From: Thiohalomonadales bacterium
Lineage (GTDB): Bacteria > Pseudomonadota > Gammaproteobacteria > SZUA-152
DNA: 27,426 nucleotides
Assembly: GCA_048061555.1 (NCBI GenBank)
Contig: JBGMRO010000002.1
Coordinates: 1 to 27,426, forward strand
Reading direction: 5' to 3'
The stretch's first letter is position 1, and the number at the start of each line of letters is the position of its first letter. Shown here piece after piece: positions 7,139 to 24,433 of the stretch. A program made the position numbers and the translations under genes. A model generated the notes under the pieces. It did no database searches, was not told the origin of the DNA, and saw nothing but the letters and a program-made list of their open reading frames with translations.

Positions 7139-8532
7139 AACCTCTCGGCAAGAAAATTAAAATAGTTCTATCCGGTCTTTTTGTGATTGCTGCGTTGAGT
7201 ATCGCTATTTTTCCAGCACAGCAACAGATCGTTAGTCCACGTTTGACCCTGCCAGTGATAAAACTCGCCGGGCAATCGTTTGAAATTGAAGTGCGTCACT
7301 CGGTAGGTTTTAGTTTCTCTGACTGGCAGGTGGGCTTGATCGATTATAAAGGTGATGCCGTTGCATTGCCGGTATTGGACACGTCGATCGGTTTTGGGGT
7401 TTCCAGGCTAATCGTCAGTTTGCCGCAGTCGATGGTGACGGGACAATACACACTGGTGCTCGGTGATTCTCTACCCAGCAATACGCTGTTTAGTAAGAAC
7501 GCAGTCTATGTGCGTGACCACATGCCTGAAGATATTTCGATTATTCAATTGGCAGATTTACCAACCCTAGGTGGAGATGAAAGTGGGGATAAGGCATTAG
7601 AAGGTATAATTGAAGAGATCAATATCATCAATCCTGACGTCGTCTTGTTTAGTGGAGATCTGGCCTATGGCGGTAGCTGGGATCAGTACCGGCGTTTGCT
7701 AGCATTGCTCGAACAACTTGAAGTACCACTCATCACCGTGCCGGGCAACCATGCCTATTATGGATGGGCGGGTTATCTTAGTTTACTCGGTAGACCCTAC
7801 CACCAGGTCGAGTTGGGTGATTATCAATTTATTGGTCTGAATAGTGGTCACGGGCGTGACCAGATGACCATGAGTCAGCTACGCTGGCTGGAGACTACCG
7901 TGAGTCAATCTCCGGCCAAGCATCGTATCTTACAATTACATCACCCAATACATCATCCGGAAGATTTAGGCGGCTATTTGCGCGCGAATCGACACAGATT
8001 ATTGCGGATTATCGAACAGAGTGAGGTCGCCATTGTATTATCGGGACACTGGCATGGCGATTCGGTTTATGACGATACCGGTACACTGCGTACCGACAGC
8101 TGGGATTTTACAGGCACTCCATTCGTAGTAACGACCACGGCGGGTGCGGACCTTCGCCCGAACTATTCGAACTCACCGTTGCACTTTGGGTATCGGTTGA
8201 TACGTTTCGTCAATGGTGTATTGGAAAATTACACCTATGATTACGATGGCGATGGAAGCAGGGATGCGACAAGTTCCATTCCTGTCGGCAAGTTAAAGGT
8301 CGTGCCACGTGGGCGTTATGGCGTCGGTGTACATAACGAGCTTAACGAAGGTTTTCTAAATGCCCGCGTAAAGATACATATACCCGATGCGGACAACAAT
8401 TATCTACCAAACCGAGGCAAGGTCGAAAACGTGATAAGAAAAGACGGCGAATCCATTTATTCGATCTTGGTCGATATACCCGCTAATCGCAAGACTGCCA
8501 TATCTATGGTGCAAGAAGGTTACAATGATTAA
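7135..8532 (+). CDS. Exported calcineurin-like metallophosphoesterase with atypical motif I
   Basis: N-terminal hydrophobic segment; motifs ADLP (normally DxH), GDL, GNH, HHP and GHWH. GTGA overlap with the upstream stop. Confidence 0.8.
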   Translation: MKPLGKKIKIVLSGLFVIAALSIAIFPAQQQIVSPRLTLPVIKLAGQSFEIEVRHSVGFSFSDWQVGLIDYKGDAVALPVLDTSIGFGVSRLIVSLPQSMVTGQYTLVLGDSLPSNTLFSKNAVYVRDHMPEDISIIQLADLPTLGGDESGDKALEGIIEEINIINPDVVLFSGDLAYGGSWDQYRRLLALLEQLEVPLITVPGNHAYYGWAGYLSLLGRPYHQVELGDYQFIGLNSGHGRDQMTMSQLRWLETTVSQSPAKHRILQLHHPIHHPEDLGGYLRANRHRLLRIIEQSEVAIVLSGHWHGDSVYDDTGTLRTDSWDFTGTPFVVTTTAGADLRPNYSNSPLHFGYRLIRFVNGVLENYTYDYDGDGSRDATSSIPVGKLKVVPRGRYGVGVHNELNEGFLNARVKIHIPDADNNYLPNRGKVENVIRKDGESIYSILVDIPANRKTAISMVQEGYND

Positions 8533-9607
8533 GACGTTATTAGCTTACCAGTTTGTATTTTTATTGGCTCCTGCGCTGATCATTTCCATGGCCGTATTTG
8601 GCTCTGATTTCAAGGGGCCGACGGGCTGGGTGCATGTCGTCGCCTGGTCGATTATTTCAATATTGCATATATTACGTCGCTGGTGGGCGGCCAAAGTATC
8701 GGCTGGCATAATGCGGATATTATTGATCATTGCTATCCCCATAGGCGTGCTCGCCTATCGGCAGATCCATCTCGATATCTGGGACGAACATAATCTATCA
8801 CAAGCAATATTGATCAGCTTGCTGGCCGTATTGGCGTATCTCGGCAGTGTGTTCGCCACGCTTGCGGACGATGGCAGCGAGAGTGGCCACTTTAGCGATA
8901 AATATCAGCTTGAGATGGTCCTGATTATATTTTCCGTGTGTTGGCTGGTTGCGCTGATGTATCCGCAGATTGCCTTTTTTGCGGTTGTGTTGATATTGGG
9001 CTTGGCGGCAATTTGGCTTTCCTGGTCACGCCGAGTGCAGGCACGGGCAAGTTCGATAGACGATAAATTCACAATCTTAGATAAAACCCAGGATACAAAA
9101 TACTGGGGGATCAGGTACCTGGTGTTCGTGCTGTATCTCGATGCCGGTTTGGTGGTCTGGGACTATAAGGTGAATCTGGTCTGGGCTGGGCATCTGGCGG
9201 TGGTATTGTTGGCCGCGGCCTTGGGCGTATTGTTTAGCCGATTTTTGAGTGGCCGGCAACTAGCCGATCACAAACGTCAACTCTTTTGGGTCTACATGTT
9301 GGTGGGCATCAATATGGCCGTGGCGATGAGCATACCGACCTATGTTATTAGTACCGTGCATACGTTTCTGCTCGGCCTAGGTCTGGGGGTCGTAATTGCT
9401 CACTTGAGTGCGAGCAAGCAAGGGCAGCCGGCGCTGCTACACATTACAGCCTTGTGGCCTTTTGTCGTTTTAGGCCTAGTCGTCGGTTATGCCTTTTATG
9501 CACAGCTGAGTCTGGCGGCTTGGCGTATTCTCTTTGTGATACCGCTACTCATTATCGCCGTGAAGATAATCTTAAAGACACGCGCCGCAGTACAATCTCC
9601 GTCTTAG
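8525..9607 (+). CDS. Multi-pass integral membrane protein of unknown function
   Basis: 360 aa ORF with roughly 10-12 hydrophobic segments; overlaps the preceding gene by 8 nt. Confidence 0.75.
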   Translation: MIKTLLAYQFVFLLAPALIISMAVFGSDFKGPTGWVHVVAWSIISILHILRRWWAAKVSAGIMRILLIIAIPIGVLAYRQIHLDIWDEHNLSQAILISLLAVLAYLGSVFATLADDGSESGHFSDKYQLEMVLIIFSVCWLVALMYPQIAFFAVVLILGLAAIWLSWSRRVQARASSIDDKFTILDKTQDTKYWGIRYLVFVLYLDAGLVVWDYKVNLVWAGHLAVVLLAAALGVLFSRFLSGRQLADHKRQLFWVYMLVGINMAVAMSIPTYVISTVHTFLLGLGLGVVIAHLSASKQGQPALLHITALWPFVVLGLVVGYAFYAQLSLAAWRILFVIPLLIIAVKIILKTRAAVQSPS

Positions 9608-10167
9608 TATGGAGCGCTACACGACACTGGCATGCGTTGCCTGTGTAACACTCAACATACTTATATTCCCTGAAAATTGATGCGTCTATACAAAAAATTT
9701 TTCAGATTGGTAGGAACTATCGATCCATGAAAAGCGTTTATTATATAATTGAAATTGCTTTGTGCCTATTCATGTGGTTCTACTTTGCCTTAAAAAGGAC
9801 TTTAAAATCACTTTAAACCGTGTATAGTAATATTTATGGGTTGACTACGGCGCTTATTCTTCATTTTTACCGTCGAGCTTAACCTGCAAATTTAGTCGTG
9901 CCGACAAGGTAATTAAAGTTTGTATTTTGCTAGCAGTTATTGCCTTATAAGTAATACGTAAGATTATGACCGGTAATCACGTAAGTAGTAAGAAGGGCGC
10001 TGCGGCGTGCTAACGTCGACATGTCCATGCCGATAAGTCGGTCCTGGCATTTGAGCGCTATTAGCGTAATAGTTAGAAAGGAAGCACTAGGATTAGCTTG
10101 TAGTCAATTTTATCTAGTTCGGCACAGTTGCCGAGTAGATACTTAAGTAGTAATTAGGGAGAGTAAT

Positions 10168-10695
10168 ATGCAATTATCCAATGTTAACGGGTTTGCCAGG
10201 TTGAGCAATCGCAGCATAATATTGTTAGTGATATCCAGCGGCATGATGCTGGTATCCGGTGCAAGTTTTGCGAGTAGTGCAATAGCCAATCAAGTGGCGA
10301 CATTTTGTGCACCAGCGATGACCAGTCCAAATGTAGGGTCTTGTAATTCATGCCATATTACGAATATTACCCGGAGCGTCAACGATTTAACCCCGAAAGG
10401 TCTTGAGGCGCAAGCAGGTAATTTTTCTGCATTTTGTACTACAGCGACGACACCAACGCCTCCCACATCCCCCCCAGTAACGCCACCCGTTACACCACCA
10501 ACTACTCCACCAGTAGACCCAACATTACCGACACCACCGACCACAGGTATGGGCATGAGTGGCGTACCAGTTGTCCCTCCGGGTGTAGGTATGGGCACGG
10601 GCGGTATAGTATCGTCAAGCGACGATGACGACGACGATGATGATGATGATGATGACAGTGTAATGGCGCCACTGCTTAAGGCCTTGGGTTTTTAA
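10168..10695 (+). CDS. Secreted small CxxCH (putative c-type heme) protein with Pro/Thr linker and poly-Asp tail
   Basis: GGGAG RBS; signal peptide ending ASFA; CNSCH motif; PT-rich repeat; 12 Asp; followed by a strong terminator. Confidence 0.7.
   Translation: MQLSNVNGFARLSNRSIILLVISSGMMLVSGASFASSAIANQVATFCAPAMTSPNVGSCNSCHITNITRSVNDLTPKGLEAQAGNFSAFCTTATTPTPPTSPPVTPPVTPPTTPPVDPTLPTPPTTGMGMSGVPVVPPGVGMGTGGIVSSSDDDDDDDDDDDDSVMAPLLKALGF
10621..10656 (+). repeat. GAY trinucleotide run encoding 12 Asp
   Basis: gac gat gac gac gac gat gat gat gat gat gat gac; mixed codons. Confidence 0.9.
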
Positions 10696-10813: not shown

Positions 10814-10864
10814 GTCGTGAAGAAAGTATCAATTGGCACGGAGCCACAAAACGATTATTATTCC

Positions 10865-10965
10865 AAGTTGCTGGGGGTGCTGATTGTCCTTTTAGAAATA
10901 AGGGTACAGAAGCTGAGATACACCCTTCGAACCTGATCCGGGCAGTGCCGGCGTAGGGAAGCCTT
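10865..10965 (+). promoter_or_regulatory. TPP (thiamine pyrophosphate) riboswitch
   Basis: GGGGTGC...GCTGAGA...ACCC..GAACCTGAT.C.GG...TGCCGGCGTAGGGAAG, directly upstream of thiC. Confidence 0.95.
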
Positions 10966-11032
10966 GTTGCCTACCTATATAAGCGCCAATTTCCGCCTTA
11001 GTCCTTAAATGTAAGAAAATGAGGGATGATGA

Positions 11033-13061: not shown

Positions 13062-13406
13062 TTAGTAGATATAGACCGCACCTGCCTCAGGTCGGTTGCT
13101 TGTATCTCGTATACCGCTGATTGGATCGTTAAAACCGGTGGCAATGCTACCCTCTGAGGGAGCCGTAACCAGGAGTGTATGACCGTCATGATCTAATTCG
13201 ATCACGGTACCAAAAGAGTCCCGATACCCGGGGTCTGGCGCCTTCTACTAGGGTTGGTTTTTCTCCGGTACCAATGGGGCCATCTTCGTCACCACTGCTG
13301 CACACAGCATGAATACAAGGACACTGAACAAACCGCCGGTAACCACATTTGTAACGGCTTTCTTGGCGGTGCTGTAAATACGCCTACTCTTCCAGCTCTC
13401 CCTCAT
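13062..13406 (-). pseudogene. Internally deleted, frameshifted FG-GAP/integrin-like repeat lipoprotein gene
   Basis: ATG 13406 (AAGGA RBS) gives MRESWKSRRIYSTAKKAVTNVVTGGLFSVLVFML. A shift near 13303 gives CSSGDEDGPIGTGEKPTLV. A third frame (13244-13062) gives KAPDPGYRDSFGTVIELDHDGHTLLVTAPSEGSIATG...AGAVYIY*, a typical terminal bacterial FG-GAP repeat. Not in the ORF track. Confidence 0.72.
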
Positions 13407-14259
13407 CCACATCGTCCTTTTTAATGTCTTCTATATAATAAATTCCTATGCCTGTGCGGGTGCCTGGTTGGGTAAGCCCTAGCTCTTTTTCGATACGTTT
13501 TTTATTGGCCAACCACTGATTCAAATCAAGTATCAGTGCATTGCATTTGTCACGGCTAACGATCCTGAATTCATTGATGCCCGCCTTTGACAGTTGCCCA
13601 TAGACCACCTCTCTTTGGAAACGAGGCTCCTTGGAATTGTGCAGGTTGTGATCAATTGTAGTCAATAGGTCTGAAGCGCTGGTCCCCATGATAGTGAGTT
13701 TGTCTAATTCATCGGAAACGGGGACGTAACCTTGAGAGATGAGCGTGACCTTGTTCTCGCCCACCAATTTTACTGCCTCAATGCGCAGCAGCTCGTCCAA
13801 TATAGCGCCGTGCGTTACGTCCCCACTATACTGCTTAACCAATTGTTTAAAGTCAAATTTATCGCCACGTATGATCAATGTGCGTGGCTTGTTTTTCTTG
13901 CCTTGATAGTTTTTATCTTGTAACCAGCCACCCAATACACGAGAGGCACGATTTAACGGGCGACTAACATTGGAACTAGTCAGATTATTCTCAAGTAAGT
14001 TGGTGATCTTGACCACCTCTTTACGGCTCAGGCCCGACAAAACCGATACGCGCGATATCGACGTCTTCCGCCCTTGAATTCCAAAATGGTCATAGCCCAC
14101 TTTTACGAACAGTTTTTTCGCCAACTCATTAAATTCCACATGCGATACACCGCAACTCATTAGGATACGAATAAGCGGCTCCATAAGTTTCGCGGTGGCC
14201 GCGAGTACACTATTTTTTTTACTGTCCATTGCTGGGAATAATAACCCACTTCTTAGCAT
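13384..14259 (-). CDS. DUF6502 family protein (putative HTH-like regulator)
   Basis: PLIRILMSCGVSHVEFNELAKKLFV, SISRVSVLSGLSRKEV, NRASRVLGGW and FKQLVKQYSGDVTHGAILDELLR recognised as DUF6502-like. The start could instead be 14229. Confidence 0.75.
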   Translation of the reverse strand: MLRSGLLFPAMDSKKNSVLAATAKLMEPLIRILMSCGVSHVEFNELAKKLFVKVGYDHFGIQGRKTSISRVSVLSGLSRKEVVKITNLLENNLTSSNVSRPLNRASRVLGGWLQDKNYQGKKNKPRTLIIRGDKFDFKQLVKQYSGDVTHGAILDELLRIEAVKLVGENKVTLISQGYVPVSDELDKLTIMGTSASDLLTTIDHNLHNSKEPRFQREVVYGQLSKAGINEFRIVSRDKCNALILDLNQWLANKKRIEKELGLTQPGTRTGIGIYYIEDIKKDDVDEGELEE

Positions 14260-14298: not shown

Positions 14299-14327
14299 TT
14301 GACAGATTATAAAAATGGGAATAAAGT
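14299..14327 (+). promoter_or_regulatory. Candidate sigma70 promoter for the five-gene operon
   Basis: TTGACA (14299-14304), 17-nt spacer, TAAAGT (14322-14327). Confidence 0.55.
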
Positions 14328-14678
14328 CCCTATTTATGGTCTGGGGAGGCTGTTATTGGTCGTAAAGTGAGCATATGGAGGCCGGTCAGTTTGCGCTAGT
14401 GATATCGGCGACGTGGGCATTCAAAACCGCGCAATCACTAAGTCTTATCTATACAAGGCTGGCAAAAAGAAATTGCTTGGGGGGATTTCTTTTAGTCGCG
14501 CAGCGGGGGGCTCGGGATGCGTTAAAGAAAACGGAAACGAGATAGTGTGAGAAATTGTTCTATGACGATTGATTAGACAGAGCGGTAGCGTCTTCAGTCT
14601 TCGATAATAATCTGCGTGTAGTGGGTTTACAAAAATAAATGTCTGTTAGCAGACGAAAATGAATAAAGGAGTTTGTCT

Positions 14679-16736
14679 ATGTCATCACCAATACGGAAAT
14701 ACAAAATAGTCTGTGGTGTTTCGCTAATACTACTGAGCCAAGGCGCGCTAGCCATTGGGACATTGCCTGGCATCAATTTTACCGAAAGGAAAACGGAGCA
14801 GGTGTCGCGTAATATCCTGGAAAAATGTGTGTTTGGGCCTGTTTGTGATTTACCGTCGAGGAATATTATCGACACAGAATCGTTTACGGGGGTACCTGGT
14901 ACAGGTGATATCGCCCCCTATTATTCTACCGCCTATTTTTCACGCGCTATCGATAGCAAAAAACTGGCGCTAGCAGATGAACTTGAGATACAGGTTAACG
15001 TTCAGTCGCATAGTGGCATTCTTCCAGATTGTGGCATTCTCGTGCGCGAATTCTTTTTTCTATACCCTGATACTTCGACGTCAAATAACATTGTTTACTG
15101 TCAAGGTCGATCAGGGGATCTTGGGAGTCCAGGTTTTAGTTTTGAATGGGGACAGAATGATACCTCACCAAAACCTGGTAGCGATTTAAGCTATCCGATA
15201 ATTAATGGTGTAAAAATGGAGAGATGGACCACTCGTCGAAATATATCCTTTAAAAATCCGCGCTTATTGTACGAGTCGGAACCGGAAAAAATGTACCAGT
15301 CCGCCAAAAGGATTGTGCCGTATACGATGATTGAATACGACCTCAGTATGACTGAAGATTTTCGTGAAAGACCAGCTAATAGTTACGGGGCGACTAAAAC
15401 TACTACAGGTCTTGTTACTAATCTTCCTCCGATACGGGCGATACTGTTAAACAAAGACACGATACGTTTAGGTTGCAAATTAGGTCGCGATGTGCAGCGT
15501 ACTATTTTAAACCAATCCATAGAGCCAGTCTCTTTACTCCAATATCCTGAAATGTCGACATTTGTTGCCGGTTTCAATCTATCAAAACAATATGACGGGA
15601 CTACTTACAAACCAAATGTACAGCTTGAAAAATTGAAGTCTGCATGTGCCGGAGTTGGTGATGGTTTGGAGGTGTTTGGATTGGGGGCAGCTGAGAACAG
15701 AAAAGTCAATCTATACATAAGATACGGAACTCTAGTCGACGAGACCAATTTATGGGATGACTACGCCACCTCAATACGAGACGATCTTAATTACCGTTTT
15801 GACATTTGGAATTCTCTGAATAACGTCAATAATACGTTTGCGAGCTCCAATACGGAGTTGTTGGCCTATCTGCAGCGGGCTGCTAACGATATGAGATTAG
15901 TATTAACGGCGTATGCGCTAGACCCCGTTAATCTTCCTGCTTTTACCCTCGCCGAAGTCGATCAGTTTTTTTATGGCCCAAGTATGGGAGATCTGGCCGG
16001 GTTATATATACCCACCATTGATGTATCGGCGGCACCGGTAAGCTGGGCTACGTTTGATAGATTTGCAAAAGATGAGGCATTAAAGGGCGACCCACTATCA
16101 CCCTATATAAATTATTCAAGTGAAGTTAAATTACTGACAGCCCTGAATGACGTGCGAATATCTGGTAGCGCGGCGGTACTGGTTAATATAGTCAACGACG
16201 CGTTGGCAGATCTAGAGAACGAAATGTCCCGAGCGAATTACTTTTTGTTGCTCGTGGCAGCAGCGAACACCAAAGTCCAGACGGCGTTGAGTATTGTTCA
16301 AAGCGAAATAACCTTGGCATTGGGCCAGGCCTCTGCGCAACCATTGACACCGCTCACGATAATTACGGCGGCTACGGCACCGACAAATCCAGCACCCGGT
16401 ACAACAACTTCCTCAAATAGTTTTTTACCGATCACGTCGAGCAATGGGCCCAATGCGCCGATAACTGCTGCATCGTACATTGATGTTTATTGGACCGGTG
16501 CTGCACCGCCAGCGGGTTATAACATCGCCATTTTTGAAGAAGCGTCCGGTCTTCTACGTATTCAAAAAAGTGTGAGTGCGATGACCTTCGATGCTACTAC
16601 GCAAGAATGGTATATCGCACTTTCTGTTACGAATACCACACGCGTGGGGAATTACATCGTTGGATTTACATCCGCAAACATAGATACGTTATTTGGTGCG
16701 CCACGCAGTGATGTCTTTAGTGTAGTACGGCCATAA
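14679..16736 (+). CDS. Secreted uncharacterised protein A1 (paralog of 22409-24433)
   Basis: AAGGAG RBS 7 nt before ATG 14679; signal peptide ending GALA; six Cys in the mature part; helical middle; Pro/Thr linker; about 100 aa beta-rich C-terminal domain. Confidence 0.85.
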   Translation: MSSPIRKYKIVCGVSLILLSQGALAIGTLPGINFTERKTEQVSRNILEKCVFGPVCDLPSRNIIDTESFTGVPGTGDIAPYYSTAYFSRAIDSKKLALADELEIQVNVQSHSGILPDCGILVREFFFLYPDTSTSNNIVYCQGRSGDLGSPGFSFEWGQNDTSPKPGSDLSYPIINGVKMERWTTRRNISFKNPRLLYESEPEKMYQSAKRIVPYTMIEYDLSMTEDFRERPANSYGATKTTTGLVTNLPPIRAILLNKDTIRLGCKLGRDVQRTILNQSIEPVSLLQYPEMSTFVAGFNLSKQYDGTTYKPNVQLEKLKSACAGVGDGLEVFGLGAAENRKVNLYIRYGTLVDETNLWDDYATSIRDDLNYRFDIWNSLNNVNNTFASSNTELLAYLQRAANDMRLVLTAYALDPVNLPAFTLAEVDQFFYGPSMGDLAGLYIPTIDVSAAPVSWATFDRFAKDEALKGDPLSPYINYSSEVKLLTALNDVRISGSAAVLVNIVNDALADLENEMSRANYFLLLVAAANTKVQTALSIVQSEITLALGQASAQPLTPLTIITAATAPTNPAPGTTTSSNSFLPITSSNGPNAPITAASYIDVYWTGAAPPAGYNIAIFEEASGLLRIQKSVSAMTFDATTQEWYIALSVTNTTRVGNYIVGFTSANIDTLFGAPRSDVFSVVRP
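16422..16730 (+). repeat. Direct repeat copy 1 (C-terminal domain of A1)
   Basis: Aligns without gaps to 24122-24430 (offset 7700). 96/103 aa identical; 25 nt differences over the 280 nt counted. Confidence 0.95.
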
Positions 16737-16790
16737 CAAGAATTGACTGGTCGCCTTTCCGATTGCTCGTTCTTAACTGCGTAATATGAG

Positions 16791-16823
16791 TGGGGACCCT
16801 CTATGGGTCATAGCAGGTCCCCA
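16791..16823. other. Intergenic GC-rich hairpin between A1 and B
   Basis: tggggacc-ct-ctatg / ggt / catag-ca-ggtcccca, followed by atttt. Confidence 0.6.
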
Positions 16824-16877
16824 ATTTTCTATGCGACATTTTTTACGCAACTATATCTATGCAACAATGGAGGTAAC

Positions 16878-18053
16878 ATGAATTTACAAACAAGATATCT
16901 GTTTGGGTTATTAATAATAATTCTGCAGTTCCCGGTATATGCGTTCGAGATCTATTCTCCTACCGGTGAACCTGTGCCCGCACAAATGGATCAAGAGGAG
17001 GCGCGCCTTAATATATTGAATAGTCGTACGAATGAAGTCGTCTTTGCACATGGTAACTATGCAATTACGAGGGATAACTTGTTTCTGGGTAATGATGGCA
17101 TATTAATGCAAAGCAAGGCCTGGTATAGCGATGCATCAGTTTGGTTGGCGTTACTTGACAGTATTGTCACCTCATTTCAGACCAATAATATTAGCCAACT
17201 TGCTCAATTTAGTGTTCGAAATAAACTTCGAACACAGATAAATAGTGCCCATACAGAATTTTTGCGATTATCGAGCAGTGCGGCATCAATTCGATCTAAA
17301 AGCCAATCTGCACTGAATACGCTCGCTGATGTGAGACGTTTTCCAGCACAGTTTGTAACAGATTTTGACGCACCGATTGTGGGTTTAGTCGCTAGAGCAA
17401 ATCAGTTGGAAGATGCGGTCATCGCGATTAATAATACACTCAATATCAGCTTTATCTCGGCAACAAAATTGGCGCTGTCCAGAACACATCAAATCTCAGA
17501 GCTCTTGTTGAAATCTGCAGTGCTAAATACACAGTATGCAGCGATACAAGGGGATCTAAAGATGATGGAGTCCGTTCTGCTAGCAGAGAATATCGTGGCG
17601 CCACTCTATGCGGAACTATTAGAAATAAAAATTAAAATCAATACGCTCGTTAACGACAGCATGCCATTCAATGCAAATTCACAATTAGCGATAATGCAAA
17701 CGAAGAGCACGCAAGCGATTGCTACAATCAATAGTGCGGGTATCGGTGCTACGGAGGCACAAAGTGGCATAGACAGAATTAATGCTTTACTATTTAAAGC
17801 ACAAAACAGCGTTTCCTTGATTATGAATGCACCAGAGGCGGCCATTGTTTCACTTTACAGGAAATTGGCGGGTATCCCAGTGCTGTATTGTCGTTATCCC
17901 ATCGGTCAGAAAAAATTTAATTGTCCATTAATGAAGTCACTGGGTGGTTTAACCAATGCTGATATTTACGCGATGACGCCGGCAGATCTAAGATATTTTG
18001 AGGACTCGATAAAAAGAGTATATGACGGACCGATAACCATCGGAGGGATTTAA
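16878..18053 (+). CDS. Secreted, largely alpha-helical uncharacterised protein B
   Basis: GGAGG RBS before ATG 16878 (ORF-track start 16803 is less likely); signal peptide ending PVYA; long amphipathic helices; C-terminal Cys pair. Confidence 0.85.
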   Translation: MNLQTRYLFGLLIIILQFPVYAFEIYSPTGEPVPAQMDQEEARLNILNSRTNEVVFAHGNYAITRDNLFLGNDGILMQSKAWYSDASVWLALLDSIVTSFQTNNISQLAQFSVRNKLRTQINSAHTEFLRLSSSAASIRSKSQSALNTLADVRRFPAQFVTDFDAPIVGLVARANQLEDAVIAINNTLNISFISATKLALSRTHQISELLLKSAVLNTQYAAIQGDLKMMESVLLAENIVAPLYAELLEIKIKINTLVNDSMPFNANSQLAIMQTKSTQAIATINSAGIGATEAQSGIDRINALLFKAQNSVSLIMNAPEAAIVSLYRKLAGIPVLYCRYPIGQKKFNCPLMKSLGGLTNADIYAMTPADLRYFEDSIKRVYDGPITIGGI

Positions 18054-18054
18054 C

Positions 18055-20379
18055 ATGAAACCTAACATGAAAAGAATGTTTATTTCTATTTTACTGCTTG
18101 CATCAAGCATCATGATGGCTCCGGGCGTGAATGCCGCAGTACAATGTAACGCGATGTTGGCGATCGATAATATGGCGGACGGTGCCAAGATTGACCCGGC
18201 ATTATTGGCTAAAATGTTGGGTCGTACGCCTCTGACTTTTATCCCCTTTGTCGCTCAAGATATCGTAGCCTGGATTGATTATTTCAATATTAATTCAAAT
18301 CCCCAACCCCAAGCCCCAAAGATTGGTGATAGAACTGTGGCTATGACTACCACCAATACCATTGAATTAAGGGAATACAAATATACGGACTTCGGCTCAC
18401 CTGGATGGGTTATGTATTCTGATGTGGGTACGGTAACGGAACTGCTGCAGGATTTAAACAAATTTGAGCAAGAAATGAATGCGCTAGGTTATTCAATACG
18501 TACCACGGATAACGACTCAATATTTTCTGACGTAGAAGCACTGTATACGGACCAGAAAAAATTGAAGGCGCAAATGCTGCATGATTTAAAGGTCGCGGCT
18601 ACCACGCAATTACTGGAGTGCGCAGCGACTATACCCGTTGCGAATTGCCCCCAGTTTGACTTGCAGTATGCACAGACGCATTTGGTTGATACCGTTGAGA
18701 GAATCGAGGTGCTTCCTGATGGTACACAGAAAAAAATAGTAGAATCAGTAACACAAATCGATCCAAATAAAAAAGTTGACATTAACGGAAATGAAGTAAC
18801 CTTATCTACACTTATAAATGCAGCGAATAGCTCAGCCAAGGTTGCCTGTTTATTAAATATAAAATTGTTCGATCTTATTCCCGGATTCCAAGCAGTCTCA
18901 ATGCCAGGAATAGATCATCCGGTGATAAGCTGGAATTTACCGACGTTAAGCTTGCCGAATTTTGGTAAAATGACCTTTGCCGGCATGAGTTCGAAACTAC
19001 AAGCGCTTGGTTGCCCGAAATTTCTATGTGGCGCATTAGCCAAAGTCGGGTTCGGTGGTAGTGGTCCATCGAAATGGTGGGAGAATTATATAGACTTCGA
19101 TTTTGCTGATTTTAACTCACCCGAAGCGCTTAAATTAAAGGCTATTCAAAATACTTTGAGTGGCTTGAGCACTAACTTTGATATTCCCAATTTATCAAAA
19201 ATGCCGGTATTGGACCCACCTACGTATCCCAAACTACAACTCAAGAAAAAGAAGGAGTGGTCAGGAATAAACCGCGGTAGCCATGACCGAGTCGGAATTG
19301 AATCTCTGGCCTATTATGAGATCTATGGTAGCGAATTAGCGCAAGCTGGTGTGGCCTATGGAAAATTCAGCGCATGGATACTTGGATTAGAGATAAATAT
19401 TGTTAGTGCAAGTGGAGATTTTTTTACCGGTGTGGCATCCGAATCTAATAATATCGGCTTAGGGCTAACGAGTGTTGATCCTAGCGATATACTAGGATAT
19501 ATGGCTATTAAGCTTCGTTATTTTGGCGATACCTGGGAGAGTATACAGAATCAAAGTGGTGGATTAGGTATCTCGGTAAATAGAGACGAACCTCCCATTT
19601 CTTTTAAATTCATTATGGGTAACAGCTATCAGTTTACGGTGGGTCCAGTACCTGTGGTCGTCACTATTGGTGGTTACTTTGAGGCGGGCCTAGACTGGTC
19701 AGCCGGTCTTGGTCCATTTAAGATGTACGCGATGCTTGAACCTTTTGCTAAGGGTGGAGGTTTCGTTCAAGGGGGTGCCGGGATTGGCAAGTTTTCTGCT
19801 GGTGTAGGTGGCGAACTGACAATAATAGATGCCCGGGTTCCCCTAGAAGCCGCCGTGCGCTTGGCGTTTTCCGAAAATGGGGAGCCCTATTTAGATCTCG
19901 GTATATCATCTAAGCCCTATTACATCACCTTGGGCGGGCGTATTTACGCCTACGTTACATACCCATGGCCTAAATTTAGTTGGAGGCCCGGCTGGAAAAC
20001 AAAACAAAAAACAAAGACACTTTTTGAAACTCCGGGAGAATTACACGACTATCCTATTTTTGATTGGGGCATGGAAGTCGGGTATCGCGGGCTGACCATG
20101 CGCGGAGATTTAATCGATCAACAAGATTTAGCCATGGCGGCAATGTTGCAAGGTTCCATAGATATTTTCAATCGCGCCGACGCCTTGTCTTCTTATCTTA
20201 GTAAAACAAATCTTAGGTTAGTCAACTTCTATACGAAACTAGGGCAAGATCTCGCGGCAGAAACGACGAATGTCCCCGTGGTTACGAGTACAGTTGTTGC
20301 CGCATCTGACGCCTTTCTATTAGAGTTAGATACCTATAATTGTCATCTTTCAACAATTGCTGGTACGCCGTGTTTGTAA
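18055..20379 (+). CDS. Secreted protein C: helical N-half, amphipathic beta-sheet C-half resembling the LLTP open beta-sheet
   Basis: GGAGG RBS; signal peptide ending GVNA; starts 1 nt after the stop of B; Gly/aromatic alternating strands from about 19243 to 20090. Confidence 0.8.
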   Translation: MKPNMKRMFISILLLASSIMMAPGVNAAVQCNAMLAIDNMADGAKIDPALLAKMLGRTPLTFIPFVAQDIVAWIDYFNINSNPQPQAPKIGDRTVAMTTTNTIELREYKYTDFGSPGWVMYSDVGTVTELLQDLNKFEQEMNALGYSIRTTDNDSIFSDVEALYTDQKKLKAQMLHDLKVAATTQLLECAATIPVANCPQFDLQYAQTHLVDTVERIEVLPDGTQKKIVESVTQIDPNKKVDINGNEVTLSTLINAANSSAKVACLLNIKLFDLIPGFQAVSMPGIDHPVISWNLPTLSLPNFGKMTFAGMSSKLQALGCPKFLCGALAKVGFGGSGPSKWWENYIDFDFADFNSPEALKLKAIQNTLSGLSTNFDIPNLSKMPVLDPPTYPKLQLKKKKEWSGINRGSHDRVGIESLAYYEIYGSELAQAGVAYGKFSAWILGLEINIVSASGDFFTGVASESNNIGLGLTSVDPSDILGYMAIKLRYFGDTWESIQNQSGGLGISVNRDEPPISFKFIMGNSYQFTVGPVPVVVTIGGYFEAGLDWSAGLGPFKMYAMLEPFAKGGGFVQGGAGIGKFSAGVGGELTIIDARVPLEAAVRLAFSENGEPYLDLGISSKPYYITLGGRIYAYVTYPWPKFSWRPGWKTKQKTKTLFETPGELHDYPIFDWGMEVGYRGLTMRGDLIDQQDLAMAAMLQGSIDIFNRADALSSYLSKTNLRLVNFYTKLGQDLAAETTNVPVVTSTVVAASDAFLLELDTYNCHLSTIAGTPCL

Positions 20380-20401
20380 GGCGGTAGTTACCGATCGATA
20401 A

Positions 20402-20455
20402 AACAAGCCGTCAACTTAAATGCGTAACCTCGTATTCTTGAGTTGACGGCTTGTT
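20402..20455. other. Long intergenic inverted repeat between C and D
   Basis: Perfect 15-bp arms aacaagccgtcaact (20402-20416) and agttgacggcttgtt (20441-20455), with further internal pairing (aatgcg/cgtatt). Confidence 0.85.
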
Positions 20456-20484
20456 ATCCACATTAATAGAGAGCTTGGATTAAT

Positions 20485-22338
20485 ATGAAACAAAAGAAAC
20501 TGGTTTTATTCTTACCCTTTGTTTTGCTGGTTATTGGTGCGTTAATATTTTTAAATGACATCAACAAGCAGACAAGCAAATCCGACGAATATTCAGGCAA
20601 GATGTCATTGCTTCAATATCATTTCCAGCCCGGTAGCGTGATTGAATACAAAATTGATTATCAATCGGAAGGGCAAGGAACCGTTAATATTAGTTCAAAA
20701 GTGAAGGCAAAAAAAAGCAGCGTCAATCATAAAGCACAGGTCGCGATGAAAGGGGGGCTGATACTAAAGCAAATTGCCAGAGATGACCAAGAGAATTATG
20801 TTGTCGAATACGAATTTACACCAGACACGATGAACATACAATACAACAACAAAGTTATACCAAAACCAGAACGAATCCAGACATCTGTGGTGATATTCCC
20901 CAATGGGACACTAAAATCATTTTATATGAAGGAAAACGTATTTTCGAACTATGGTCATATGATCAGAGAAATATTGTCCCTGCTTGAGTTTCCGCTACCG
21001 GCAGAGGCAGTGACTCATTGGTCGCATATGGAACGCAATATTAGTAAAGATCTAATGGCAAACTACATTGTAAATAACGTCAGTGATGATAAGTTGTTTT
21101 CTGTTGTTAAAACCTATGCAAAGGCTAGCAACAGCGAGTCGGTTAAAGGGCAGTTTGATTACACGTTTAATAACTCGAAAGGATATCTAAAATCCGTCCA
21201 CGGAGAACGAACCATAGAGTACAAGCTTGCTCAACAGGCAATGAGTGTTTCCACTGCTCGATTGAATGTAGAGTTTGTATCTTACTCAAAAGGAATGCAA
21301 GCACCTAGTTATGATAATACCATTTTAGGCAGCAATACGGGTATCATTGAGGAAACACTAAACGGAAAATATACGTCTACCAGAATAGAAAAAGAAGCCA
21401 ATACAAGCGCTTTAGGTAATGATGATTTAGTGACTCTCACCACTAAATTTGCAGCAGCCGATGAGTCCGATCATGCGGTATTAACAAAATTGGTCCAAAA
21501 ACTTTCCGCGTTACTTTATTTGCATCCAGACGTGTCGGGCGACGTAGCCGCGATGTTAGCAGATTATGAATATACCGACGGACGCTGGGGTGCGATCGCT
21601 GCCTCACTGGCGTACGTCGGACACCGAGAGGCACAACTAGCCATAATTGATGCGCTTAATGACACCAGCAGCGACAGCAAAACACAAATCGCCTTAATGC
21701 CGCATTTAGCGTTTGTCGGTAAACCCATCGTTGAAGCCGAAGAATACTTTCGCCAAGTGAAGCTCACGACTCGATCCGAGGAGGCGGCCTATAAATCTAA
21801 TAACGGGCTGGGCATAATCGCACAAAATCTACGTTACAGCGATAGCGATCGAGCCAAACAAATATACACAGAAGTCTCTGCAGAACTAGATAACGAGTCT
21901 GACCCGGTAAAACAAGTGCGTTTAATAGAAGCGATTGGTAATATGGGGATGGAGGAACAAACCCAATTATTGGAAGAATATTTAGACAGTCCCATCAAAT
22001 CCGTCAAATTGGCTTCGATTTATTCCTTACGCCACATCAATACCACCGATTCCAGAAGCCAACTCTTGGCCTATCTGAGCGACGATGATGAGAAGGTAAG
22101 AGAATCAGCCGCCATGGCCCTAGAATATACTACGGGCAACATGGACGCCCTACAAAAATATGAGCAGCGACTCAAACAAGAGACTAATGTCACGATCCTT
22201 AAAGTCATATTACGCAATCTCATCAAAATGTCCGATGATTTCCCGCAAAGTCTAGCGATATATGATCGATTTCTCACTACGTGTGCGCATAGGGATCTTT
22301 GTGGTTTTGCGAAGAGTTTGCGCTCGATGAGATCGTAG
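20485..22338 (+). CDS. Membrane-anchored protein D: beta domain plus HEAT-like helical domain, Vitellogenin_N/LLT-like
   Basis: N-terminal signal anchor; beta-rich residues about 40-270; helical repeats RLIEAIGNMG, VKLASIYSLRHI and VRESAAMALEY. Confidence 0.8.
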   Translation: MKQKKLVLFLPFVLLVIGALIFLNDINKQTSKSDEYSGKMSLLQYHFQPGSVIEYKIDYQSEGQGTVNISSKVKAKKSSVNHKAQVAMKGGLILKQIARDDQENYVVEYEFTPDTMNIQYNNKVIPKPERIQTSVVIFPNGTLKSFYMKENVFSNYGHMIREILSLLEFPLPAEAVTHWSHMERNISKDLMANYIVNNVSDDKLFSVVKTYAKASNSESVKGQFDYTFNNSKGYLKSVHGERTIEYKLAQQAMSVSTARLNVEFVSYSKGMQAPSYDNTILGSNTGIIEETLNGKYTSTRIEKEANTSALGNDDLVTLTTKFAAADESDHAVLTKLVQKLSALLYLHPDVSGDVAAMLADYEYTDGRWGAIAASLAYVGHREAQLAIIDALNDTSSDSKTQIALMPHLAFVGKPIVEAEEYFRQVKLTTRSEEAAYKSNNGLGIIAQNLRYSDSDRAKQIYTEVSAELDNESDPVKQVRLIEAIGNMGMEEQTQLLEEYLDSPIKSVKLASIYSLRHINTTDSRSQLLAYLSDDDEKVRESAAMALEYTTGNMDALQKYEQRLKQETNVTILKVILRNLIKMSDDFPQSLAIYDRFLTTCAHRDLCGFAKSLRSMRS

Positions 22339-22408
22339 ATAAAATTTGTAATTCAATTGTAACATATAACGAAATAATAGTGCTTTCGTAAAAATTGGGA
22401 GAAAATGT

Positions 22409-24433
22409 ATGTCATTAGATTCAAGGACGATTAAGGTTATTGCGTTAACCGCATTAGCCATATTAAGTCAAAGTGTTTGGGCGATAGGGCCATTGCCTGC
22501 CGTTAATTTTGAAGAGCGTAAGTCCGATCAAGCGTCTCGGGATGTTTTGGAGAAGTGTGTGTTTGGACCGGTTTGTGATTTGCCGGTGGTAAATATTGTA
22601 GAGTCTGTGCAGTTGCTGGCCCATTCCAATCCACAGACCGGTAACCGTAATCTCAGCGATCTATCTAATTTTGAGTATATAATCGATAGCAAAAAACTGG
22701 CAGCAGTGGATGAGCTGGATATACAAATCAGTGTCACTGAAGTCGACCAGGCACAAGCTCTTCAAGATTGTGACGTTGTGTTTGAACAATTTCGATACCT
22801 TCATCCAGAAATTAATTACATTACCGGACATTATTGCGAAGGTGGGACTAGTGGCGAGGGATATATTGCGCCCGGTGCAAGTAGAATCTACGACTCGCCC
22901 GGGGGCGGGGGTATAACAGTGAGACAAATCTCGTATCGCGATGTAATATTTTCCAATCCACGCTATACAAAAGCAGCAGACCATTTAGTTTTAGCCGGTG
23001 GTCATTTTGAAATGGTTGAATACGACGTGTCGATGAAGGAAAAATATTTTGTAGGGACATACTACCATATGGACTTAATGCAAACTGAAATTACCAATTT
23101 TCCTCCAATTAAGTCGCTGGTAAGAAGCGCGTCCGCAATTTACCTGGGATGCAGCATCAATGGTACTCCAGATGGTACTATGCGCCCGCGTTCAGGTATA
23201 CTGCGCCGTCCTCTTACATTACAAGGGCCAGTCACGGGCGCCATTACTAGAGTTACTGCTAGTATTAGTTTAGCAAAACAGTTTGACGGAGCCGCTTTTA
23301 AACTACATCCACAATTAGAGCGTATAAGAAGTGCTTGCCCTGAAATAGGAAACAATCTGATATTATTTGGGTATGTTGATCCATACACTAGCATACAGAC
23401 TACTTCACCAGTCAACATACACTTTCGATACGGAAGCATAACCGACGAAACCAACCTATGGGACAACTACGCCACCACCATAAGAGACGATCTCAACTAC
23501 AGCTTCGACACGTGGAATAATCTCAATACAATACATTCAAGCTTCACCACTTCAAATGCCGAGCTATTAAAATTCCTAGTGCAATACTCAAACAAGATCA
23601 AGGATCTATTGGGGGTATATTCATTGGATCCTGCGACACCCCTCATTGATGTGGAGCAATTTTTTTATGGACCCGGTACAGGGGATTTAGCAGGTGTTTT
23701 CATACCAATCGTTTCCATTCCAGACGCGCCCGCCGATTGGCTCGCATTTGACAGAGACGCAAAGGATAAAGCAACGGGAAAGACGCCGGTAGATGCAAGC
23801 CTAAAAAGTAGTTATGTACAATATCTGGCTGACATACAAATGTTAGACAATCTCAATGCTGTAAGAATATCCAAGAGTACGGCGATACTAGTCAATCTAG
23901 TCAACACCGCGGTACAAACATTGGATAATGAAATGTTGAGGTCGCAATACTTTTTGGCGTTGGCAGATCACGCCAAAGCGAATATAAAAACCTCCCTGGC
24001 TGCGCTTACCGGCGAAATCACGGGTGCTTTGGCACTGGCAACAAGCTCGCCAACCGTATCGCTCCAGGTAGATCCTCAACCGACTGTGTCGCCAATAAGC
24101 ACCGCACCGACTACGTTTGGGTTTTTGCCCATTACATCGAGCAATGGGCCCAACGCGCCGATCACGGCTTCATCGTTTATTGATATTATTTGGACCGGTG
24201 CCGCACCGCCAGCGGGTTATTACATCGCCATTTTTGAAGAAGCGACCGGTCTTCTACGTATTCAAAAAAGCGTGAGTGCGATGACCTTCGATGCCACCAC
24301 ACAAGAATGGTATATCGCGCTCTCTGTTACGAATACGACACGCGTGGGGAATTACTTAGTTGGATTTACCTCCGCAAACATCGATACGCTATTTGGTGCG
24401 CCACGAAGTGATGTCTTTAGTGTGGTTCGCTAG
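22409..24433 (+). CDS. Secreted uncharacterised protein A2 (paralog of 14679-16736)
   Basis: GGGAG RBS; signal peptide ending SVWA; shares EKCVFGPVCDLP, IDSKKLA, DETNLWDxYATxIRDDLNY and the C-terminal domain with A1. Confidence 0.87.
   Translation: MSLDSRTIKVIALTALAILSQSVWAIGPLPAVNFEERKSDQASRDVLEKCVFGPVCDLPVVNIVESVQLLAHSNPQTGNRNLSDLSNFEYIIDSKKLAAVDELDIQISVTEVDQAQALQDCDVVFEQFRYLHPEINYITGHYCEGGTSGEGYIAPGASRIYDSPGGGGITVRQISYRDVIFSNPRYTKAADHLVLAGGHFEMVEYDVSMKEKYFVGTYYHMDLMQTEITNFPPIKSLVRSASAIYLGCSINGTPDGTMRPRSGILRRPLTLQGPVTGAITRVTASISLAKQFDGAAFKLHPQLERIRSACPEIGNNLILFGYVDPYTSIQTTSPVNIHFRYGSITDETNLWDNYATTIRDDLNYSFDTWNNLNTIHSSFTTSNAELLKFLVQYSNKIKDLLGVYSLDPATPLIDVEQFFYGPGTGDLAGVFIPIVSIPDAPADWLAFDRDAKDKATGKTPVDASLKSSYVQYLADIQMLDNLNAVRISKSTAILVNLVNTAVQTLDNEMLRSQYFLALADHAKANIKTSLAALTGEITGALALATSSPTVSLQVDPQPTVSPISTAPTTFGFLPITSSNGPNAPITASSFIDIIWTGAAPPAGYYIAIFEEATGLLRIQKSVSAMTFDATTQEWYIALSVTNTTRVGNYLVGFTSANIDTLFGAPRSDVFSVVR
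24122..24430 (+). repeat. Direct repeat copy 2 (C-terminal domain of A2)
   Basis: About 91% nt identity to 16422-16730 over the counted 280 nt. Confidence 0.95.

Follow-up and report, generated by a model that had tools for sequence, protein, structure and literature searches.

An operon of five exported proteins in a Thiohalomonadales genome contains a conserved two-gene module with a probable bacterial relative of the large lipid transfer N-terminal module

We analysed an operon of five genes for exported proteins, A1-B-C-D-A2 (positions 14,679–24,433), in a 27,426-nucleotide (nt) stretch of DNA from a Thiohalomonadales bacterium (Gammaproteobacteria; assembly GCA_048061555.1, contig JBGMRO010000002.1), hereafter the window. 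The conserved unit of this operon is the C-D gene pair, while A and B are known at only one other locus. Protein D, which is anchored by its signal sequence, is very probably a member of a bacterial branch of the N-terminal module of large lipid transfer (LLT) proteins, and its partner C belongs to an unnamed family. We assign a probability of roughly 45% to the reading that the five proteins form a multi-subunit assembly outside the cytoplasm that is based on the C-D module. Its C-D heterodimer would hold a lipid or other hydrophobic ligand, with B as a helical component and A serving in targeting.

Protein D and its pairing with protein C

A structural model of D was built from two sequences, D and its orthologue from a groundwater gammaproteobacterial genome (locus L002), and had a mean predicted local distance difference test score (pLDDT) of 63.5. 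It consists of a transmembrane helix (residues 10–29), a region of strands (52–268) that is interrupted by helices (150–184) and modelled with low confidence (pLDDT 45–65), and about 18 helices (288–616) that are modelled with high confidence; the protein has a C-terminal CxxxxxC motif. The original prediction had likened D to the N-terminal LLT module of vitellogenin, MTP and apoB and had proposed a Foldseek comparison of its predicted model, the outcome of which agrees with this assignment. The top match in PDB was MTP (6i7s, E 3e-11), followed by bee vitellogenin (9enr, E 1e-7), with further matches to apoB100 (9bd1, 9ea7, 9e9r) and MTP (8eoj). These alignments span about 620–735 columns, and in rank they equal or precede the best matches to alphaRep and importin.

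Relatives of D likewise pass the gathering threshold (24 bits) of the Pfam model Vitellogenin_N (PF01347), with 34.0 bits for the L002 orthologue and 53.2, 55.5, 48.8, 51.7, 39.6 and 29.4 bits for D-like partners of other C-domain genes. Two of the latter matches span the barrel (48.8 bits, profile positions 76–526; 51.7 bits, positions 79–567). Seven aligned D-like proteins were collinear over their full length, and all of them conserve the strand-helix-strand region that lies ahead of the repeats. D ends after its helices, and the Pfam models Vit_open_b-sht (PF09172) and MTP_lip_bd (PF19444) match nothing in the genome (E ≤ 10). A PDB sequence search with D recovered alphaRep designs only, and a word-based search of 5.8 billion proteins with its strand region returned only the query or nothing.

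Twenty-six C-domain loci were examined, from 22 genomes that represent about 12 genera or lineages and at least two classes of Pseudomonadota. In 24 of these loci (the window, L002, L008, L014, L037, L015–L018 and 15 of 17 further loci) the gene directly downstream of the C-domain gene, in the same orientation, is D-like, so C and D form a conserved two-gene module. At the two unpaired loci the next gene is an EAL or a DDE transposase gene, and both genomes hold another intact pair. In a sample of 400 genomes from the phylum, D-like genes of full length were confined to five C-domain genomes (plus the present one). These C-domain genomes were also the source of the D profile, and the informative part of this result is that no D-like gene occurred unpaired. 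At least one partner is membrane-tethered, either C as a lipoprotein or D by a transmembrane helix, in all paired loci in which both N-termini were readable (22 of 22). No third gene recurs beside the pair in the loci examined. One complete-quality genome (G536) carries two C-D modules (L014 and L037), the C proteins of which are a 606-residue lipoprotein and a protein of 2,865 residues with cadherin, Ig and TSP3 modules that bears the C domain close to its C-terminal end. In locus L073 (G859, positions 8,550–10,193) a C-domain lipoprotein gene stands as an orphan, with a DDE transposase gene in the position of the D-like gene; an insertion sequence may have removed the D-like partner.

The survey of gene neighbourhoods that had been proposed for C and D homologues found A and B together with C-D in L002 only, and no A or B relatives were detected at the C-D loci examined beyond L002 and the window. 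L002 carries A-B-C-D in the same order as the window. Its B, C and D proteins are 34–35% identical to their counterparts (B, 34%, E 7e-76), the similarity of A is weaker but significant (E 2e-5), and the B stop codon overlaps the C start codon, by which the stop-start coupling of B and C is conserved. There is a single A gene in L002 and no second copy. Of the earlier proposal that the five genes form one system, we therefore retain A-B-C-D as found in L002 and C-D as found in 24 of 26 loci, and not the five-gene unit. Adjoining A-B-C-D in L002 are a PilZ-domain gene and a gene for a P-loop protein (7,312–8,595) that have no equivalent in the window. A second connection between the families comes from a metagenomic protein of 1,434 residues (P0026), whose first 896 residues are a complete C and whose residues 1,200–1,398 are matched by a profile of three A proteins (E 2.5e-8). 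This fusion of an A-like domain to a full C argues for a physical link between A and C, which would act together.

The C, A and B proteins and the genomic setting of the operon

A HMMER search of 1.84 billion representatives placed 222 cluster representatives in the C family at E ≤ 0.001 and 32 at E ≤ 1e-30, and a word-based search of the 5.8 billion proteins returned C itself only. Full-length relatives, all hypothetical proteins, were found in a groundwater gammaproteobacterial metagenome-assembled genome (MAG), in Photobacterium salinisoli (WP_120513654.1) and in Photobacterium sp. SP02. The widely shared core of C (residues ~352–690; nt 19,108–20,124) starts with a Pro-rich segment and the motif KKKKEW, the family-invariant form of which is K-x-K-x-W...G, and continues with a Gly-rich strand region and a conserved GDLxDQxD segment, after which comes a conserved helical tail of about 80 residues with a terminal Cys pair. 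No Pfam family matches this core and none is common to the 37 relatives checked; PDB sequence searches with C and with the C-family profile gave no match, and the C alignment recovered nothing in the metagenome contigs, viral contigs or plasmids searched. We also considered C as an outer-membrane beta-barrel and rejected this assignment, as its strands are followed by the helical tail with the Cys pair and it has no C-terminal aromatic beta-signal.

The proteins that host the C domain range from small lipoproteins of 600–700 residues to giant mosaics of 2,900–4,100 residues, and in the giant relatives the domain is internal and not terminal. Seven of the 37 relatives also have bacterial TSP3 repeats, and Ig, VOMI or ricin lectin domains occur in others. 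Two metagenomic proteins, P0117 and P0157, join a C-type domain (residues 313–500) to a VOMI beta-prism and ricin-type lectin domains. Such sequences hint at carbohydrate targeting in part of the family.

Following its signal peptide, A1 has a conserved Cys-pair motif at the N-terminus, then a variable head and a helical half that is conserved (residues ~306–545), and it ends with a Pro/Thr linker and a C-terminal domain of about 100 residues. A1 and A2, which share 46% identity over the full length, had rightly been recognized as paralogues that flank the block; their last ~100 residues are nearly identical. This shared domain is encoded by a 300-nt direct repeat (Table 1), whose 100 codons include 19 that differ synonymously and seven that differ non-synonymously, which indicates that the domain is kept by selection and not by very recent gene conversion. 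B has a conserved C-terminal Cys pair. A1, A2 and B have no Pfam or NCBIfam family, PDB sequence searches with A1 and B were empty, a word-based search of the 5.8 billion proteins with A2 gave only the query or nothing, and an alignment of A1 and A2 identified no loci in the genome or metagenome contigs searched. In hhalign comparisons the A, B, C and D families proved unrelated to one another. Neither Pfam and NCBIfam at E ≤ 1 nor PDB sequences gave B a match to the alpha pore-forming toxins of the ClyA or Hbl type, and this candidate assignment was rejected at the level of sequence.

The five open reading frames (ORFs) are co-oriented and closely spaced on the forward strand. A single nucleotide separates the B stop from the C start codon, and a GGAGGG ribosome site lies within B; the other intergenic gaps measure 141 nt (A1-B), 105 nt (C-D) and 70 nt (D-A2). 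In the ORF listing A1 can be extended to a TTG at 14,673, and the start of B is most likely Met26 of a longer ORF that begins at 16,803. Export signals were judged by eye from the sequence and not by a signal-peptide predictor. A1, A2, B and C each have a basic n-region, a hydrophobic core and a cleavage motif (ALA, VWA, VYA or VNA), while the signal of D is a hydrophobic helix of 20 residues that lacks such a motif and corresponds to helix 10–29 of its model. The number of Cys residues is even in all five mature proteins (6, 2, 8, 2 and 6) and the Cys pairs are kept in the L002 orthologues, which fits export to an oxidising compartment. Searches of the operon proteins against Pfam, NCBIfam, PADLOC and PHROGs gave no enzyme family, and the sole match was to HEAT repeats in D. 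The original description of five exported, co-oriented ORFs with four cleavable-type signals and one anchor-type signal, and with no recognizable enzyme motif, was accurate in each of these respects.

Table 1. Positions of the operon genes and further features in the window
Feature	Position	Strand	Description
175-residue exported ORF	10168–10695		precedes thiC
TPP riboswitch	10863–10976		upstream of thiC; 59.9 bits; ordinary
DUF6502 gene	13384–14259		divergent from the operon; Pfam 215 bits
Promoter-like site	14299–14327	+	TTGACA-17-TAAAGT upstream of A1; consensus match only; such sites as many as expected from shuffling (weak evidence)
A1	14679–16736	+	685-residue exported protein; ATG start six bases past aaggag
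Direct repeat, copy 1	16422–16721	+	300 nt, in A1; encodes the shared C-terminal domain
Hairpin between A1 and B	16792–16830	+	GGGGACC...GGTCCCC then AATTTTCT; -23.4 kcal/mol for 16780–16840
B	16878–18053	+	391-residue exported protein
C	18055–20379	+	774-residue exported protein; unnamed family
Inverted repeat between C and D	20402–20455	+	perfect, 15 bp, no T-run; -33 kcal/mol for 20395–20465
D	20485–22338	+	617-residue signal-anchored Vitellogenin_N-like protein
A2	22409–24433	+	674-residue exported paralogue of A1
Direct repeat, copy 2	24122–24421	+	300 nt, in A2; 90% DNA identity to copy 1

A T-run directly 3' of the hairpin between A1 and B makes this element look like a terminator or attenuator. 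Both this hairpin and the inverted repeat between C and D may be attenuators or processing sites that set subunit ratios. No riboswitch was found with Rfam in the 420-nt leader of the operon, the sole match being the thiamine pyrophosphate (TPP) element before thiC.

The upstream neighbours of the operon are kdtA, lpxL, tolC, pcm, a sulfatase-family gene, a phosphoesterase gene and thiC with its TPP riboswitch. Their order is retained in relatives from the same family, and downstream of thiC the window shares nothing with these relatives. The exported ORF that precedes thiC has counterparts with 40–42% identity at the same position in two same-family relatives, which marks it as a genuine gene, not an orphan. 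C was not detected in the other 31 genomes of the order, and a sample of 400 genomes from the class yielded it once (E ≤ 1e-5); the G+C content over the operon is slightly lower (~0.43 vs 0.46). Together, these features make the operon look like an accessory locus. There are no dedicated secretion genes within the window.

The DUF6502 gene that had been noted next to the operon is indeed present and divergent from it, and a tie to the operon was rejected. Six or so DUF6502 paralogues occur in this genome (contigs C758, C224, C630, C521, C27 and C729), a lipoprotein-like gene lies directly downstream and on the same strand for four of the five paralogues examined, and locus L002 has A-B-C-D and no DUF6502, and we therefore do not count the gene as part of the system. 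The genes that follow the DUF6502 paralogues encode a signal peptide, then a Cys and often a Gly/Asp-rich stretch, and the arrangement suggests that an uncharacterised DUF6502-lipoprotein pair may exist.

Proposed assembly and rival explanations

In the assembly that we propose, D is very probably an LLT-type scaffold, with a barrel and a helical horseshoe, that is tethered at the membrane by its N-terminal helix. C would dock on D via its Gly-rich strand domain of about 300 residues, as their near-constant gene adjacency suggests, and the resulting membrane-proximal heterodimer would hold a lipid or other hydrophobic ligand. This last step, and with it any lipid role of the operon, we infer solely by analogy with what the LLT fold does in animals. 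The coupling of B and C and the fusion of A to C suggest how the remaining subunits might join: B would be made in step with C by translational coupling as a helical partner, and A1 and A2 would bind C via their conserved helical half, with the variable heads and the shared C-terminal domain serving in targeting. The hairpins after A1 and after C may tune the subunit ratios.

Several observations weigh against this proposal, and some of them concern the assignment of D itself. Template modelling scores (TM-scores) of D against the LLT proteins are about 0.3; low values are expected, since domain packing is uncertain in the D model. The barrel region has a pLDDT of 45–65, and its geometry is only predicted. 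D scores 26.9 bits with Vitellogenin_N at profile positions 461–584 only, which represent helices, and because this model also matches HEAT proteins of the control genomes Synechococcus and Methanosarcina, D's own Pfam score taken alone is weak evidence. The same Pfam matches, and the recovery of nothing but alphaRep designs in the PDB sequence search, are what would be expected if D were an ordinary HEAT-repeat protein whose likeness to LLT proteins is a by-product of helical repeats, in an operon of otherwise unrelated exported proteins. We consider that explanation very improbable, given that the best fold matches of D are all LLT proteins and are aligned over its whole length, that partner homologues match the Pfam profile at positions 76–567 with the barrel included, and that the region ahead of the repeats is kept in the seven aligned D-like proteins. 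Further points against the proposal concern C and the genes around the pair. The model of C, built from a two-sequence alignment, had a pLDDT of 28.9 and was unusable, and the original view of C as the lipid-cavity sheet of an LLT protein finds no direct support at the level of sequence: neither of the Pfam pocket-sheet models Vit_open_b-sht and MTP_lip_bd matches C at E ≤ 10, and its 37 relatives have no Pfam family in common. No lipid-metabolism gene recurs near the C-D pair. Finally, the giant C-domain proteins carry cadherin-like, Ig, LamG, PA14 and TSP3 modules, with which a role in anchoring or export fits as well as a role in lipid handling.

These adhesin-like relatives make a serious possibility of the main rival, in which D is a chaperone, docking or retention partner of C-domain proteins, as MTP is for apoB, and has no lipid-carrier function. 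The C domain would then be a handle for the folding, export or envelope tethering of diverse surface or secreted proteins, here C together with A1, A2 and B. The placement of the domain within adhesin-type mosaics, each followed by a D-like gene, speaks for such a role, as do the lectin, Ig or TSP3 tails on members of the C family and the tethered partner at every readable paired locus. We nevertheless hold it to be somewhat unlikely, because D retains a whole LLT-type scaffold, whose known role is only in lipid carriers, and because many C-domain proteins are lipoproteins of about 600–700 residues that comprise little besides the domain and would leave little cargo to handle. A membrane-damaging or adhesive assembly against other cells is improbable. 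In it, C would penetrate a target or outer membrane with its Gly-rich strands, B would contribute a helical pore or scaffold subunit, and A1 and A2 would be alternative receptor binders. Such an assembly would suit the amphipathic Gly-rich strand region of C with its conserved polybasic motif, the one C relative that joins the domain to VOMI and ricin lectins, the two diverged A paralogues with one constant domain, and an accessory locus that was found in none of the other 31 genomes of the order. It would leave the near-constant pairing with an LLT-type protein unexplained, and no toxin, pore-former or secretion family was found in Pfam, NCBIfam or PDB sequences, nor any dedicated secretion gene in the window. 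A bolder form of the lipid-binding assembly sees the pair as a widespread two-gene bacterial counterpart of the machinery that builds animal lipoproteins, with D as the barrel and helical scaffold and C as the lipid-holding sheets, which together with B and two interchangeable A subunits would form an extracytoplasmic lipid-loaded particle or lipid-extracting complex. This form is unlikely in our judgement; if it were true, the LLT fold would predate animals.

Relation to known lipid-transfer proteins

To our knowledge, LLT proteins (MTP, apoB, vitellogenin and apolipophorins) are treated as an animal invention, and a full-text literature search found no paper that describes bacterial LLT-type proteins. 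Pfam already matches some D-like proteins, and in this sense the resemblance has been latent in databases. New here are the four-family version of the system with a duplicated A subunit and the A-C fusion. Bacteria from two or more Pseudomonadota classes carry an LLT front module that nearly always comes with the same unnamed partner domain, and this offers a tractable route to the origin of the LLT fold and possibly to a new form of envelope or extracellular lipid handling. Close relatives are available in cultured Photobacterium species and, within a large gammaproteobacterial family, in complete genomes that may come from cultures. The version in the window is the richest among the loci examined, with four protein families and a duplicated subunit, which recommends it for structural studies of the complete assembly.

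The AsmA/TamB-like bridges and TULIP proteins of bacteria (PMC6791001, PMC10345924) resemble the present proteins in being exported or anchored relatives of eukaryotic lipid-transfer folds, but they have other folds, and the operon proteins have no sequence match to those families in Pfam or NCBIfam; the word vitellogenin does not occur in the text of PMC6791001. Vitellogenin/lipovitellin and apoB100 (9ENR, 9BD1, 9EA7) are closer, with fold matches to D and with PF01347 thresholds passed by D, its L002 orthologue and the D-like partners, whereas D lacks the open beta-sheet and the DUF1944 and vWD domains, and sequence identity is only 12–14%. The smallest LLT protein is the large subunit of MTP (PDB 6I7S, 8EOJ), and it is also the best fold match of D, sharing with it a barrel followed by about 17–18 helices within some 600 residues. 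MTP continues into two lipid-pocket beta-sheets where D stops after its helices, and it pairs with PDI, whereas no thioredoxin-type family was found among A1, B, C and A2 in Pfam or NCBIfam. Unlike MTP, D comes from a bacterium, is anchored in the membrane and has a member of the unrelated C family as its partner.

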